Shown here piece after piece: positions 36,691 through 62,090 of a stretch of 64,000 nt of DNA. Position numbers and translations under genes: made by a program. Under the pieces are notes generated by a model. That model searched no databases. It was not told where the DNA came from and saw only the letters and a list, made by a program, of their open reading frames with translations. Source of the DNA: Dehalococcoidia bacterium. GTDB lineage: Bacteria > Chloroflexota > Dehalococcoidia > DSTF01 > JACRBR01. Numbering within the stretch: position 1 is the stretch's first letter; each line of letters begins with the position of its first letter. The stretch is taken from positions 116,792-180,791 of the forward strand of contig JBBDXE010000008.1 in assembly GCA_040902505.1 (NCBI GenBank), read 5' to 3'.

Positions 36691-36838
36691 CTAGCAAGGT
36701 GCTGAAAAAGGGGGTACAGGGGGCAGAGCCCCTTGTCGGGGGGCTCCGGGGGGTGTCCCCCCGGATTCACAACCATCCAACTGGGCGGGCGGGTGGGAAC
36801 GTCAACTGTTCCTCTTCGGGTTTTCAGCACCCTGCTAG
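36691..36838. mobile_element. MITE-like element copy 1: 148 bp with 18-bp terminal inverted repeats (CTAGCAAGGTGCTGAAAA ... TTTTCAGCACCCTGCTAG)
   Basis: Near-identical to 55986..56135 (one T-run indel). Internal perfect hairpin ccggggggtgtccccccgg. No coding capacity. Confidence 0.75.
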
Positions 36839-36890: not shown

Positions 36891-36924
36891 TGCTCACGGC
36901 TCACAGCTCAAGGCTCACGGCTGA
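36891..36924 (+). repeat. Short-period tandem repeat (CTCACGG / CTCACAG)n upstream of the GT4 gene
   Basis: tgctcacggctcacagctcaaggctcacggctga. Confidence 0.6.
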
Positions 36925-36927
36925 ATC

Positions 36928-38229
36928 ATGAAAATCTGCTTCCTGATGTACCAGGGCAACATGTACTCGGGTGGGCAGGGCGTCTACCTCTACTACCTGA
37001 CCCGCGAGCTGGCGCGCTTGGGCCACGAGGTGCACGTCATCGCCGGGCCGCCCTACCCCCGCCTCGATGAGGCAGTCACTGCCCACCACATCACCGACTA
37101 CAGCTACTGGACGTACCACCACTACAAGAAGGACTTCATCTTCAACCGGCCGCCCCTCAGCTACTTCCACCCCGTCAACTTCTACGACTTCATCTCCACC
37201 CGCATCAGCCTCTCCTCGCTGCTGGCGAACTTCAGCGTGCGCGCCTACCTCAAGCTGCGCGAACTGTCCCGCGAGCACCGCTTCGACATCGTCCACGACA
37301 ACCAGACCCTGAGCTACGGCGTCTGGGCCGCCCACGCCACGGGATTCCCCCTCGTCGCCACGATCCACCACCCCCTCTCGTACGACCTGCGCAACGCCCT
37401 CCGCCAGGCCCGCACCGCCTACGAACGCGCCCGCCGCATCCTCTGGTCGCCCTGGATGATGCAGGAGGTCGTCGCCCGCCGCATCGAGCGGATCATCGTC
37501 GTCTCCGAGACCTCGAAGGTCGACGTCATGGACGCCTTCGGCCTCCCCGAGGACCGGATCCGCGTCGTCCACAACGGCATCGACACCGACACCTTTCGCC
37601 CGCTTCCGGACGTGGAGCGCCAGCCGGACAAGCTGCTCTACGTCGGCAACTCGGAGGACCGCAACAAGGGCGCCCGCTACCTCCTCGAGGCGCTGGACAT
37701 CCTCAAGGACGAGCTGGACTTCCGCGTGACCTTCGTGGACAACGAGAAGTGGCAGCTCAAGCTCGCCCCCCGCCTCGTCGACGAGCTGGGCCTGCACTCC
37801 CGCGTGGACTTCACCGGACGCATCACCACCCCCGAACTGGTGCGACACTACAACGAGGCGCGCCTCCTCGTCTCTTCGTCGCTGCACGAGGGCTTCGGCC
37901 TGCCGCTGGCGGAGGCGATGTCCTGCGGCACGCCCGTCATCGGGACGCAGATCGGCGCCTTCCGCGAGATCGTCCGCCACGGCGAAGACGGCTGGCTCGT
38001 CCCCCCCGGAGACTCCCGCGCGCTTGCGGAGGCGATCCGGATGATGTGGAATGACCCATCGTTGCGGGAGCGCCTCGGCGAGGCCGGCCGGCGCCGGATC
38101 CTCGATCGCTTTAGCTGGCGCCGCGCCGCCGAGCAGACGGTCGCCGTCTACGAGGAAGTTGCGCGGCCCCGGCGGAGCGTGCATCGGGCGCCCGCCATCG
38201 CTTCTACAGGTCAGGACCAGGACCGCTAG
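36928..38229 (+). CDS. Glycosyltransferase family 4 (GT-B, RfaB-like)
   Basis: N-terminal MYQGNMYSGGQGVY sugar-donor-loop motif. The C-terminal E-X7-E region (..SSSLHEGFGLPLAEAMSCGTPVIGT..) is typical of GT4. Confidence 0.8.
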   Translation: MKICFLMYQGNMYSGGQGVYLYYLTRELARLGHEVHVIAGPPYPRLDEAVTAHHITDYSYWTYHHYKKDFIFNRPPLSYFHPVNFYDFISTRISLSSLLANFSVRAYLKLRELSREHRFDIVHDNQTLSYGVWAAHATGFPLVATIHHPLSYDLRNALRQARTAYERARRILWSPWMMQEVVARRIERIIVVSETSKVDVMDAFGLPEDRIRVVHNGIDTDTFRPLPDVERQPDKLLYVGNSEDRNKGARYLLEALDILKDELDFRVTFVDNEKWQLKLAPRLVDELGLHSRVDFTGRITTPELVRHYNEARLLVSSSLHEGFGLPLAEAMSCGTPVIGTQIGAFREIVRHGEDGWLVPPGDSRALAEAIRMMWNDPSLRERLGEAGRRRILDRFSWRRAAEQTVAVYEEVARPRRSVHRAPAIASTGQDQDR

Positions 38230-40587: not shown

Positions 40588-40810
40588 TTGTTAGTTCTCA
40601 GTCATCAGTAGCCAGTAGTTCGTGGGACGGGCGCATTGCAGGACTTTCGGAAGCTCGAAGTGTGGCGGAAAGCTCATGAGCTAACCCTGCTCGTGGATCA
40701 GCCGGGTGCTTGCTGACAAAATGACGGCTGAGACACTGACAACTAATGACTGAGGACTGAAGAACTGAGAACTGAAGACTGAAGACTGAGAACTGAAGAC
40801 TCACAACTCC
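40588..40810 (+). repeat. Composite spacer: inverted blocks of ACTGARR heptamers flanking a ~110-bp core
   Basis: The 5' block gttagttctcagtcatcagtag is the reverse-complement orientation of the repeat. The 3' block is gactgaggactgaagaactgagaactgaagactgaagactgagaactgaagact. Confidence 0.6.
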
Positions 40811-42106: not shown

Positions 42107-42140
42107 CCGCTGACGGACTGACAGGCTGACAGACTGACGA
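42102..42140 (+). repeat. Short-period tandem repeat (CTGACNG)n, 3' of the second GT4 gene
   Basis: cgctgaccgctgacggactgacaggctgacagactgacg. Confidence 0.7.
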
Positions 42141-51429: not shown

Positions 51430-51466
51430 CTCACTGAAAAACTGAGAACTGAGAACTGAAAACTAG
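51430..51466 (+). repeat. Short-period tandem repeat (ACTGARA)n between convergent genes
   Basis: ctcactgaaaaactgagaactgagaactgaaaactag. Confidence 0.7.
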
Positions 51467-54270: not shown

Positions 54271-54320
54271 CAGTCACCAAAACCGGTAACCGGTCACAAG
54301 TCACCAGCGGCCAGACCGCT
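54271..54320 (+). repeat. Short-period tandem repeat (GTCACCA / GGTAACC)n ending in the stop codon of the substrate-binding-protein gene
   Basis: gtcaccaaaaccggtaaccggtcacaagtcaccagcggccagaccgctag. Confidence 0.65.
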
Positions 54321-55953
54321 AGTCCTCGACCCGCGTCCGCACGTACCACTCCCGTACGCTCGCGAAGCGCGACGACGCAGTGATCAGCAGCGCATCGGCG
54401 AACCCCTGCACGCGCGGCGACTGCGCGTACGTGTACCCCGGCGCGTACAGCGGCAGCGCCGGCACCGCGGCGACGAACGCGTCCTGGAACTCCGCGTACA
54501 GCTCGCGGCGCCGGTCCACCTCCGTCGTCTGCCGCGCGCGCTCCAGCATGTCGTCGATGCTCGTGTCGAAGAGCTTTGCCAGGTTGCGCCCCGGCGGGGC
54601 GATCTGGCTCGAATGCCAGAACGGATAGGGGTCGGGGTCCGGCCCCGGGTCCACCAGCACCAGCGCCGCCTCGAACCGGCGCGGCAGCAGATGCTCGTCG
54701 ATGTACGTCCCAGCGTCCAGTGGCTGCACCGTCACCGACGCGCCGACCGCCCGCCACTGCCGCGCGATCTCCTCGGCGATCGCCACCCGCAGCGGGTCGT
54801 TCGTCGTCGACAGCGTGAACGCCAGCCGCAGCCCCCCGCGGTTGCGCACGCCGTCCTGTCCCCGCGGCCAGCCAGCCTGCTCGAGCGCGCTCGCCGCCTG
54901 CCCCGGACTGAACGACGGCACCTCGACCGGTGTGTACGCCCACGATCCCGGAGGGATGCCCGCCGGCGTGCCCTCACCCCCCGGCGAAAGAGCGACGATC
55001 AGCGCCGTCACGTCGATCGCCCGTTGCAGCGCCCGCCGCACGGTCGGGTCGGCGAAGATCGGCGAGTCGATGTTGAGGTACGCGGCGTTGAACGACATCG
55101 ACGTCAGCCTGTGCAGCGAGAAACCCTCCTCCCCGCCCAGCACGTCCAGCTGTGCCCGCGGCGTCGCCGGGTCGAGCAGCGCACCGTCCGCCGCGCCGTC
55201 GCGCAGCGCCGCCGCCAGCGCGTCACCGTCCGGGTACACCCGGAAGTCCAGCCGCGAGATGCGCGGCGGCCCCAGGTAGTACGTCGGGTTTGCCTCCAGC
55301 CGCACCCCGTCTGACGTCCGTCCCGCGAAGGTGTACGGGCCCGTCCCCACCGGGTCGGCGTTGAACGGGGTGTTCGCCAGCCCGTCCGCATCAAGCCCGT
55401 CGAGCAGGTGTTGGGGCAGGATCCCCACGTTCAGATACGCAAGGAACGGTGCGTACGCCTGCTCCAGCCGGAACTCCACGGTCAGCGGGTCGCGGGCGCG
55501 GATCACGACGCCCTGCATCAGCTGGGCCAGCACCGGGTCGCCCCGGAACTCCGGGTCGGCGATCGCCCCGAACGTGAACACCACGTCGTCCGCCGTAAGG
55601 TCGGCGCCGTCATGCCACGCCACGCCGTCCCGCAGGTGGAAGACGTAGTTGCGCCCGTTGCCCGTGATCTCCCAGCGCTCGGCCAGGTCGGGCTGCGGCA
55701 GCCCGTCCGCCCCCAGGCGCACGAGCCCGCTGAAGATCAACGACGCCAGGTCGGCGTCCGTGGGGTTGCTCTGTGCGAAGAGTGGGTTGATCTGCTCCGC
55801 CGCGCGCGTCACCCCCTCCACGTAGCGGCCGCCGCTTGCCGGCACCGCCTCGCCCTTGGGATTCGACAGCACGAAGTACCAGAAGACCGCGACCGCGGCG
55901 ATCCCAACCACCAGCGCGGCGAAGATCGGCCAGCGGGTCTGCGTCAGCGGCAC
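54319..55953 (-). CDS. ABC transporter substrate-binding protein, family 5 (peptide/nickel, DppA/OppA-like)
   Basis: 544 aa with an N-terminal TM anchor or signal. Conserved SBP_bac_5 regions (..NPTYY.GPP.I..L.FRV..D...). Confidence 0.8.
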   Translation of the reverse strand: MPLTQTRWPIFAALVVGIAAVAVFWYFVLSNPKGEAVPASGGRYVEGVTRAAEQINPLFAQSNPTDADLASLIFSGLVRLGADGLPQPDLAERWEITGNGRNYVFHLRDGVAWHDGADLTADDVVFTFGAIADPEFRGDPVLAQLMQGVVIRARDPLTVEFRLEQAYAPFLAYLNVGILPQHLLDGLDADGLANTPFNADPVGTGPYTFAGRTSDGVRLEANPTYYLGPPRISRLDFRVYPDGDALAAALRDGAADGALLDPATPRAQLDVLGGEEGFSLHRLTSMSFNAAYLNIDSPIFADPTVRRALQRAIDVTALIVALSPGGEGTPAGIPPGSWAYTPVEVPSFSPGQAASALEQAGWPRGQDGVRNRGGLRLAFTLSTTNDPLRVAIAEEIARQWRAVGASVTVQPLDAGTYIDEHLLPRRFEAALVLVDPGPDPDPYPFWHSSQIAPPGRNLAKLFDTSIDDMLERARQTTEVDRRRELYAEFQDAFVAAVPALPLYAPGYTYAQSPRVQGFADALLITASSRFASVREWYVRTRVED

Positions 55954-55985
55954 GGCACCTTCAGCCTCCGAGCGGGCCCCGGAGC

Positions 55986-56135
55986 GCTAGCAAGGTGCTG
56001 AAAAAGGGGGTACAGGGGGCAGAGCCCCTTGTCGGGGGGCTCCGGGGGGTGTCCCCCCGGATTCACAACCATCCAACTGGGCGGGCGGGTGGGAACGTCA
56101 ACTGTTCCTCTTCGGGTTTTTCAGCACCCTGCTAG
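55986..56135. mobile_element. MITE-like element copy 2 (150 bp); its terminal CTAG supplies the TAG stop codon of secG
   Basis: Same TIR pair and internal sequence as copy 1. The last 4 nt (56132-56135) overlap the secG stop at 56132-56134. Lies 33 nt upstream of the start of the substrate-binding-protein gene. Confidence 0.75.
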
Positions 56136-56362
56136 AGCGACGCGCGCACGCCCCAGGCGGAGATGATCAGGAACACGATGGCCAGGACGATCGTCAGCTG
56201 GAAGAGCGTCTTCTCGACGCCTCGGCGGGTCCGGAAGCTCGCGCCTGTCCCGCCGCCCAGCGCTGTGCCGATGCCCGACCCCTTCGCCTGCAGCAACAGC
56301 ACGATCGTCAGCACGATCGAGACGAGGATCTGCGCGATGTTCAGATAGTCTCGGAACTCCAC
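56132..56362 (-). CDS. secG: Preprotein translocase subunit SecG
   Basis: ..EFRDYLNIAQILVSIVLTIVLLLQAKGSGIGTALGGG....RRGVEK.LF..T.. Start is GTG 56362 after GGAGGGG, or ATG 56386. Confidence 0.8.
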   Translation of the reverse strand: MEFRDYLNIAQILVSIVLTIVLLLQAKGSGIGTALGGGTGASFRTRRGVEKTLFQLTIVLAIVFLIISAWGVRASL

Positions 56363-56418
56363 ATTCCCCTCCGGGCAGCGGCCCATTGTACGCGAAGGCT
56401 CCCCGCCCGCCAAAGCGC

Positions 56419-57357
56419 CTACATCGCCCGCAGGAGGCGGATGCGTTCCTCCACCGGCGGGTGCGTGCTGAACAGGTTGTTCAGCCACGACTTGTGGTCG
56501 TGCAGGGGGTTGCTGAAGTACAGGTGCGCCGTCGCCTTGTTCGCTTCTTCCAGCGGGTCCGGGTCCGCTGAGATCTTCTCCAGCGCCCGCGCCAGCGCGT
56601 CCGGATTCCGGCACAGCAGCGCCCCCGACGCGTCCGCGAGATACTCGCGCTGCCGCGAGACTGCGAGCTGGATCATCTTCGCCACCAGCGGCGCCAGCAC
56701 CGCCAGGACGATCGCCACGACGAGCAGGATAGCCATCGCCCCGCCCTTGTCGCGGTTCCCGCGCCGATGCCCCGCCCCGAACCACGTCCACCGCATGAAC
56801 ACGTCCGCCAGCAGCGCGATCAGCCCCACCAGCACCACCGTGATCGTCATCACGCGGATGTCGTAGTTGCCCACGTGCGACAGCTCATGCGCGATCACAC
56901 CCTCCAGCTCGGACTTCTCCAGCTTCTGCAGCAGCCCGCGCGTGACCGTCACCGCGGCGTGCTTCGGGTCGCGCCCCGTCGCGAACGCGTTCGGCGCCCC
57001 GTCCTCGATCACGTACACCCTCGGCATCGGCAGGCCCGAGCCGATGCTCAGATTCTCGACGATGCGATACAGCTCCGGCTCGTCGTCCTTCGTCACCGGA
57101 CGCGCCTGGCTCACCGCCAGCGCCACCGACGCGCTCGCGTAGTAGCTGAACAGCGCGTACGCCCCCAGCCCCGCGAACACCACGGGCGCAAACAGCGGCG
57201 GCACCCCCAGCGCGAGCGCGATGACCGTCGCGAACGCGCCCGTGATCGCCACGAACACCAGCATCAGCAGCCACGTCTGCCGCCGGTTCGACGAGATGCG
57301 GTCGTACACCAGGACAGGTGGTTGCGCGTCGGAGGGGATCGCCTGCTGGTCCGCCAT
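56419..57357 (-). CDS. htpX: Zinc metalloprotease HtpX (M48B)
   Basis: HELSHV zinc motif and four TM helices. Confidence 0.85.
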   Translation of the reverse strand: MADQQAIPSDAQPPVLVYDRISSNRRQTWLLMLVFVAITGAFATVIALALGVPPLFAPVVFAGLGAYALFSYYASASVALAVSQARPVTKDDEPELYRIVENLSIGSGLPMPRVYVIEDGAPNAFATGRDPKHAAVTVTRGLLQKLEKSELEGVIAHELSHVGNYDIRVMTITVVLVGLIALLADVFMRWTWFGAGHRRGNRDKGGAMAILLVVAIVLAVLAPLVAKMIQLAVSRQREYLADASGALLCRNPDALARALEKISADPDPLEEANKATAHLYFSNPLHDHKSWLNNLFSTHPPVEERIRLLRAM

Positions 57358-57363
57358 CCGCGG

Positions 57364-57948
57364 CTAGGGGTTGGCGGCGGGGGTGGAGAAGCTCACGCGT
57401 ACGTCCTCGCGCGCCGCCTCTTCGGCTTCGAAGAACTCCGCCGCCTGGAAGCCGAACATGTTCGCGAAGATCAGGCTCGGGAACGTCTCCCGCTTCGTGT
57501 TATAGGAGAGCACGTTCGTGTTGTAGAACTGCCGGGCGTACGCAATCTTCTCCTCGATGTCGCTCAGCTCGTTCTGCAGGTCCAGGAAGTTCTGGTTCGC
57601 CTTCAGGTCCGGGTACGCCTCCGCTACCGCGAACAACGAGCGCAGCGTCTGCGTCAGCATGTTGTTCGCTTCCGCCGCCTGCCCCGGCGTCCCCGCCTGC
57701 TGGAGCCGCGCCCGCGCCTCCGTCACGCTCTCCAGCGTCTGGCGTTCGTGCGCCGCGTATCCCTTCACGGTCTCGACGATGTTCGGGATCAGCGAAGCCC
57801 GCCGCTTCAGCTGCACGTCGATGCCCGACCACGCCTCCCGCACGCGCAGCCGCGCTTTCACCAGCCCGTTGTACATCCCCAGCACGATCAGCCCGAGGAT
57901 GACAACCAGCGCGACGACGATCCCGATGACGATCAGGGCGGGCAGCAT
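57364..57948 (-). CDS. lemA: LemA family protein
   Basis: N-terminal TM segment followed by the LemA core (..[31 protein letters not shown]..). ATG 57948 with a GGAGG RBS. Forms the usual lemA-htpX pair. Confidence 0.8.
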
Positions 57949-58638: not shown

Positions 58639-58692
58639 GCTCACAGCTCACAGCTCACAGCTTGAGGCTCACGGCTCGGTTCACGGCTCGCC
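58639..58692 (+). repeat. Short-period tandem repeat (CTCACAG / CTCACGG)n
   Basis: gctcacagctcacagctcacagcttgaggctcacggctcggttcacggctcg. Confidence 0.7.
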
Positions 58693-61954: not shown

Positions 61955-62017
61955 CGACCGGCAGGGGGTGGAGCCCATTGCCCGTAGCGCGACGGCCTCG
62001 TTAGGATGAGGCGACCG

Positions 62018-62072
62018 GCTATGGGCGATGGGGCTCGCCTGGACCGCCCGCGAGGCTGATGGCTCCTACCAG
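62018..62072 (+). ncRNA. Fluoride riboswitch (crcB RNA motif)
   Basis: GGGCGAUGGGGCUCGCCUGGACCGCCCGCGAGGCUGAUGGCUCCUACC aligns block-for-block with the known aptamer core (GGCGAUGG.G..CGCC ... ACCGCC ... CUGAUG.C.CCUAC). It sits directly 5' of crcB. Confidence 0.85.
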
Positions 62073-62090
62073 CGATGGTAGGGGCCTTTT
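62062..62090 (+). terminator. Riboswitch expression-platform terminator hairpin (CCUACC..GGUAGG) followed by a U-tract
   Basis: ctcctaccagcgatggtaggggcctttt. The stem shares the CCUAC segment with the aptamer, the classic fluoride OFF-switch arrangement. Confidence 0.6.

Follow-up and report, generated by a model that had tools for sequence, protein, structure and literature searches.

A miniature IS5-family element in a Dehalococcoidia genome lies at a CTAG that very probably already held the secG stop codon

In the 64-kb stretch of Dehalococcoidia DNA analyzed here (the window), we found that the repeat between secG and the gene for a family-5 substrate-binding protein (SBP) is, judging by its sequence, an IS5-family MITE of 141 nt lying between duplicated CTAGs. 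In the account that we consider very probably correct, a non-autonomous IS5-family derivative inserted at a native CTAG that held the secG stop codon, and the duplication of this target kept the stop. What is new is one more IS5-family MITE, here in Dehalococcoidia, the kind itself being already known.

The whole repeat unit comprises 149 nt (positions 55987-56135) with 19-nt inverted ends, the left end CTAGCAAGGTGCTGAAAAA (55987-56005) pairing with CTAGCAGGGTGCTGAAAAA on the minus strand (56135-56117). Its outermost four bases are CTAG on either side (55987-55990 and 56132-56135), the same 4-mer being found at both ends of both copies in the window. Between them lies the element itself (55991-56131, 141 nt), with G+C-rich hairpins inside and terminal inverted repeats of 15 nt, CAAGGTGCTGAAAAA at 55991-56005 and, as the reverse complement of 56117-56131, CAGGGTGCTGAAAAA; orthologous spacers are free of it. 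The end pattern gave four matches in the window, equal to two units, vs none in 100 shuffles. The second unit, which we refer to as copy 1, occupies 36691-36838 (CTAG 36691-36694, element 36695-36834, CTAG 36835-36838), between two plus-strand genes: a GNAT acetyltransferase gene, whose TGA stop is 10 nt away, and a GT4 glycosyltransferase gene, which starts 89 nt beyond the unit. Copy 1 and the secG-proximal copy 2 are 100% identical over 134 nt, the sole difference being one T fewer in the right-end T-run of copy 1. Similarity of the flanks ends exactly outside the CTAGs, and the two genomic contexts are unrelated.

The first-pass annotation had already called the unit a MITE, which we can endorse, since it is short, has inverted ends and a target-site duplication, carries no transposase gene and is present in at least two near-identical copies. 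The remaining features were placed correctly, but the repeat starts at 55987 and not at 55986, where the base is G here and C at copy 1. ORFs within or largely within the unit are chance ones of 42-45 aa, and two longer mechanical ORFs cross into it from the flanks. A tblastn search with an IS5-type transposase found no transposase homology across the 64-kb window, and the Rfam scan of the window gave no match at copy 2. The AGCG found on both flanks of copy 2 was considered as an alternative duplication and rejected, as copy 1 is without it (TACC vs CGGG) and the arrangement is mirror-like rather than direct. In an independent assembly containing the same genes (Logan contigs, SRR27977660), contigs end inside the MITE on both sides, which is the behavior expected of a multi-copy repeat in short-read assemblies.

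To place the element, we compared its ends with those of annotated insertion sequences. BLAST of the element against plasmids returned matches to the ends of annotated IS5-family elements, and IS5-family insertion sequences on two alphaproteobacterial plasmids have ends near-identical to those of the MITE (CAGGNTGCTGAAAAA) together with CTAG duplications. The element on Methylocella tundrae plasmid 3 reads CTAG/CAGGATGCTGAAAAACCC...CAGCAGCCTG/CTAG, with the longer right end GTTTTTCAGCAGCCTG, and that on Azospirillum sp. TSH58 plasmid p05 reads CTAG/CAGGCCGCGGAAAAA...CGCACCCTG/CTAG, with the longer ends CAGGCCGCGGAAAAAGG...TTTTTCCGCACCCTG; the ends of both follow CAGG(A/C/G)(T/C)GC(T/G)GAAAAA. 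Each is ∼1.3 kb long and encodes a transposase (353-358 aa) that matches NCBIfam NF033581 (IS5 family) at 243 and 269 bits, respectively, against a cut-off of 140, as well as Pfam DUF772 and DDE_Tnp_1. The likeness extends to Escherichia coli IS5, whose ends GGAAGGTGCGAA(T/C)AAG resemble those of the MITE, and to the 4-bp Py-T-A-Pu duplication of IS5 and the IS5 group (NF033581), mostly CTAG and thus the same as here. IS5 itself is known to duplicate Py-T-A-Pu, with CTAG the commonest target (PMC5493358). Whereas IS5-group elements are ∼1.2-1.3 kb long and carry a transposase gene, the window MITE has 141 nt and none. The closest known counterpart is of similar build: MITEPsy1 of Pseudomonas syringae pv. 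phaseolicola has ends GGAAGGTCTGAAAAAGCC and a 4-nt CTAG/YTAA duplication and is thought to derive from ISPsy2 of the IS5 family (PMC3189936). Both are short and non-coding (100 nt vs 141 nt here), with ends GGAAGGTCTGAAAAAGCC vs CAAGGTGCTGAAAAAGG here and a 4-nt CTAG or YTAA duplication. The two differ in host phylum, ours being Chloroflexota (Dehalococcoidia), and in the interior, which in the window MITE is unrelated, G+C-rich and hairpin-rich.

We also carried out a family scan of one genome per species for the end core GGTGCTGAAAA, followed after 95-125 nt by TTTTCAGCACC, which yielded at least 115 loci. Among the matches listed, the hosts included Acidobacteriota, Chloroflexota, Myxococcota, Proteobacteria, Bacteroidales, Nitrospinaceae and one archaeal MAG. 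Neither a search for end pairs spaced 0.4-4 kb from each other nor tblastn with the transposase revealed a full-length parent among the 115 loci listed. The 64 kb analyzed here hold no IS5-type transposase, and the matches listed by the protein search with the Methylocella transposase were close alphaproteobacterial-type relatives, none of which could be linked to this genome or to Chloroflexota. A literature search on the end sequence returned unrelated primer matches only, and no exact match to GGTGCTGAAAAACCCGAAGAGG, the right end specific to this subfamily, turned up in metagenomes. Compared with the interiors of other family members, that of the window element stands at background (∼55%) among the matches listed, except for one locus at 65%. 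This locus, L007 (4062-4185 of the Dehalococcoidia MAG contig JAUSFE010000039.1), is the sole element among the matches listed whose interior resembles that of the window MITE. It is flanked by a CTAC/CTAC duplication and keeps both G+C-rich hairpins, one of them with paired changes (CCGG...CCGG to CTGG...CCAG). In addition, we observed an element with the same end core on a viral/proviral contig (L128, 5936-6082 of IMGVR_UViG_3300025525_000034), one contig from one viral-collection scan, and an unannotated, apparently split IS5-type transposase gene beside a matching end on Sinorhizobium meliloti GR4 pRmeGR4d (L123, ∼1846-2443).

On its other side the unit faces the SBP gene (54319-55953, minus strand), which encodes a family-5 solute-binding protein of 544 aa with an N-terminal membrane anchor (SBP_bac_5, PF00496, E = 9.4e-70) and matches an NCBI MAG protein of the same length at 100% identity. 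Its GTG start is backed by this 544-aa NCBI product and by orthologues beginning (V/L)P(L/F)TQTRWP. As the first-pass annotation had measured, 33 nt separate the unit from this start (55954-55986), so that the MITE adjoins the secG stop and sits in the 5′ or intercistronic region of the SBP gene. The 33 nt constitute the native secG-SBP spacer on the minus strand, with a GGAGG ribosome-binding site at 55969-55965, and align colinearly with the corresponding spacers in relatives (36-52 nt). We noted that the order LemA-HtpX(M48)-SecG-SBP_bac_5 (54319-57945, minus strand) is conserved in several Dehalococcoidia/Chloroflexota genomes (L117, L126 and L127) and that no permease genes adjoin the SBP gene.

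Given this position, the element might have been recruited to control the SBP gene in cis, at the RNA or DNA level, be it as an attenuator, a promoter or a hairpin for processing or stability, which we regard as improbable. RNA of the unit is predicted to fold into a self-contained hairpin from either strand, at −73.1 kcal/mol (z = −6.4) and closed by a 19-bp stem for the minus strand and at −82.1 kcal/mol for the plus strand, and greatly exceeds shuffled sequences in stability (z = −6.4 and −5.4), with the SBP start codon only 33 nt away. There are also precedents, in that co-transcribed Neisseria MITEs are RNase III substrates (PMC2229807) and IS5 is reported to be able to create fusion promoters (PMC11894529). 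However, such stability follows from the inverted ends common to any MITE, and a simple consensus scan found no promoter-like or terminator-like site on either strand of 55987-56135. The sole promoter-like site in 55700-56500 is a sigma-70-like consensus match upstream of secG (TTGGCG-17-TACAAT, 56385-56413, minus strand). The GGAGG ribosome-binding site has a low predicted probability of being unpaired whether the element is present or removed (0.09 vs 0.00), the two copies in the window are oppositely oriented relative to their neighboring genes, and relatives manage without the element. We judge the insertion most likely to be near-neutral. The element would probably be co-transcribed with its neighbors, and if so RNase III-type processing, as in co-transcribed Neisseria MITEs (PMC2229807), is a possible but conjectural RNA-level effect. 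The Correia/NEMIS elements of Neisseria, the model for such an effect, are likewise intergenic MITEs with inverted ends that are co-transcribed and form long hairpins. They differ in their TA duplication, A+T-rich composition, IHF site and transposase lineage, and RNase III cleavage, shown for Correia/NEMIS, is only conjectured for the window MITE.

To establish where the element ends and its target begins, we examined the flanks of the family members. Among the matches listed, 41 copies continue as CAG.../...CTG, as in the window, with both flanks available. Identical direct 4-mers stand beside the ends in 27 of these 41 listed copies: CTAG in 19, and non-palindromic 4-mers in the other 8 (CCAG in three, CTAC in two, CTAA in two and GTAG in one). 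If the 4-mer were part of the inverted repeat, an inverted arrangement would be expected, and this was seen in just 1 of the 41 copies among the matches listed. Since direct 4-mers, including non-palindromic ones, prevail in this way, the 4-mer is best read as a target-site duplication. We thus take the flanking CTAGs to be a 4-bp target-site duplication with the consensus CTAG/YTAR and not element sequence, which sets the limits of the element proper at 55991-56131 (141 nt).

A quite different reading of the same flanks, to which we give very little credence, is a Tc1/IS630-type MITE that duplicated TA alone within CTAG, so that the outer C/G would belong to the flank and the inner G/C would be the termini of the element. 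IS630-type elements do choose CTAG and duplicate TA, and one copy in our set (L051, ATAG...CTAT) fits the TA model better. Against this, the eight non-palindromic copies (CCAG, CTAC, CTAA and GTAG) fit a direct 4-bp duplication and not TA, so that the informative non-palindromic flanks among the matches listed favor the former 8 to 1, and the autonomous elements with the same ends encode transposases of the IS5 family, not of the IS630 family. The choice between the two models leaves the conclusion on secG unchanged, since the empty site is CTAG under both.

We next turn to the secG stop itself. The gene (56132-56362, minus strand; PF03840, E = 6.6e-13) starts with GTG at 56362, preceded by GGAGGGG, and encodes 76 aa ending in ...WGVRASL*; the protein is identical to NCBI MEX2245392.1 from a Dehalococcoidia MAG. 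The TAG stop, read from 56134 to 56132 on the minus strand, does lie inside the right CTAG (56132-56135), as had been noticed from the sequence. When 55991-56135 is removed in silico, the minus strand reads ...GTG CGC GCG TCG CTC TAG CGC TCC GGG..., with a 33-nt spacer before the GTG of the SBP gene. This reconstructed empty site (...TCGCTCTAGCGCTCC...) is colinear with two related genomes (L116 and L117); it is a reconstruction compared with fairly distant genomes (SBP identity of 68% or lower), not with a sister strain. Apart from the source organism, the highest identities reached were 88% for SecG and 68% for the SBP. An exact-match metagenome scan for the reconstructed site (CGTCGCTCTAGCGCTCCGGGGC) gave zero matches. 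One candidate empty site, a mate in the SecG cluster (P0121), was set aside, since it belongs to the same organism and lies on a contig that breaks off within the element.

Four related genomes keep the order of secG and the SBP gene without the element, at spacers of 36-52 nt. In three of the four, secG ends in TAG, in two of them within CTAG: L117 reads ...CTC CGC TAG C (spacer 42 nt), L127 reads ...GTC TCC TAG CGC (52 nt) and L126 reads ...CTC GTG TAG CGG (36 nt), 'TAG CG' being shared with the reconstructed site. The fourth, L116, ends in ...TCC GTC TGA (39 nt) and encodes a SecG of 76 aa. Upon alignment of the SecG proteins, we found that ...WGVRAS(L/I/V) is conserved and that the tail beyond it varies (0-4 residues), also in genomes without the element. 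Three homologues of 76 aa (P0009, P0110 and P0113) stop exactly where the window SecG does.

These comparisons bear directly on the MITE-driven gene-end remodeling proposed in the first-pass annotation, by which the insertion would have given secG a new C-terminus, the element carrying in the TAG and truncating or altering the protein. The stop does sit in a CTAG common to both copies of the repeat, and SecG, at 76 aa, is one residue shorter than in most relatives (77; range 77-80 aa). Nevertheless, the CTAG is the duplicated target rather than element sequence, and CTC TAG is present in the reconstructed empty site. Among relatives that lack the element, TAG stops occur at the same position or 1-2 codons from it, 'TAG CG' is shared, and one SecG of 76 aa (L116) has the same aligned end. 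Moreover, if the CTAGs belonged to the element and no duplication had occurred, excision would add 14 residues (LAPGPARRLKVPCR) to SecG, a tail that no homologue has. We consequently find the proposal hardly credible. Taken together, the duplicated target, the CTC TAG empty site and the like-ended relatives argue that the stop existed beforehand, that the element landed on it and that the duplication preserved it. On this comparison SecG appears unchanged by the insertion and the case an ordinary one, with little consequence for secG biology.

Insertion at a pre-existing stop could have proceeded as follows. An IS5-type DDE transposase, supplied in trans, would cut the DNA with a 4-bp stagger at a pre-existing CTAG, located where the last secG codon meets the TAG stop, and repair of the gaps would leave CTAG duplicated on either side of the 141-nt element. 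The secG-proximal copy of the CTAG would keep the original frame and stop, and the native 33-nt spacer and its ribosome-binding site would stay intact. The sole change to the locus would be ∼145 extra nt, strongly self-pairing, between secG and the SBP gene. We infer that mobilization would have been by a transposase in this genome; a partner of the NF033581 type would be expected to have CA(A/G)GGTGCTGAAAAA ends.

Why should a stop codon be the site? The window has a G+C content of 67.9% and contains 43 CTAGs vs 188 expected from base composition, an approximately four-fold under-representation. By a heuristic based on length and GC3, 15 CTAG sites in the window in addition to the one of secG are the stops of likely genes, which corresponds to ∼40% of native sites. 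A similar picture emerged from the family, where an ORF of at least 120 codons ends in the duplicated triplet in 12 of the 41 copies among the matches listed. All 10 of the stop-abutting ORFs that we tested had Pfam matches, consistent with intact genes, and in about half of the 10 the profile reaches to within a few residues of the stop, as in RadC (121/121 at residue 230 of 231), DUF979 (307/307 at residue 346 of 347), DUF5612 and MTHFR. Landing on native stops thus looks habitual in the family, at roughly the rate expected from a random choice among CTAGs. It is a by-product of the target preference, because CTAG is rare in a 68% G+C genome and many of the surviving CTAGs are TAG stops. For annotation this calls for caution: CTAG-targeting IS5-type elements in G+C-rich genomes will often stand flush against TAG stops, which should not be mistaken for gene remodeling.

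A broader reading, which we offer tentatively and would sooner doubt than accept, is that the GGTGCTGAAAA ends define a very widespread, as yet unnamed superfamily of IS5-type MITEs whose target choice gives harmless sites. As a part of this reading, its CTAG-targeting branch would sit at native TAG stops in ∼30% of copies among the matches listed, the gene being preserved by the duplication, and an acidobacterial branch would sit in hairpin loops. Were this a selected 'safe-harbor' strategy and not a by-product of tetranucleotide preference, it would add something modestly new to MITE ecology. The ends also mark a large cross-phylum group, which makes systematic masking and annotation feasible, and the window element breaks short-read assemblies.

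A distinct behavior was observed for acidobacterial loci of the family scan (among L003-L115), which have the same end core but continue as GAG.../...CTC, for example L004 (1835-1957), L071 (7610-7745) and L079 (1927-2051). The direct 4-bp repeats of this subfamily are TTTA, TAAA, TTCA or TGAA. In 26 of 39 copies among the matches listed, the 5 nt that flank the repeats on one side are complementary to the 5 nt on the other, and the stems so formed vary by locus (GGGGC/GCCCC, CACGC/GCGTG, CAGGC/GCCTG and CATGC/GCATG). This suggests that these elements insert into the 4-nt loop of pre-existing hairpins.

Lastly, the window holds further features of its own. Short tandem arrays of related 7-8 nt units recur in its intergenic DNA, with units CTGACAGA, GACTGAG/AACTGAG and GCTCACG/GCTCACA; the arrays lie at 1190-1218, 14925-14975 and 42110-42138, at 40748-40801 and 51440-51464, and at 36892-36922 and 58639-58662. 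Several are directly 5′ of start codons, for instance those of two paralogous GT4 glycosyltransferase genes at 36928 and ∼40810. The sole Rfam match in the window is a fluoride riboswitch (RF01734) at 62015-62075 on the plus strand, with 43.9 bits against a gathering score of 34 (E = 6.9e-09). Near the start of the window we observed a tandem duplication of 268 nt with 84% matches (1901-2434 and 1984-2804). Within the 1901-2804 region, the beginning of a short gene occurs four times in succession, encoding ...GQDLVEYA..., and by this motif the array looks like tandem Flp-type pilin genes.
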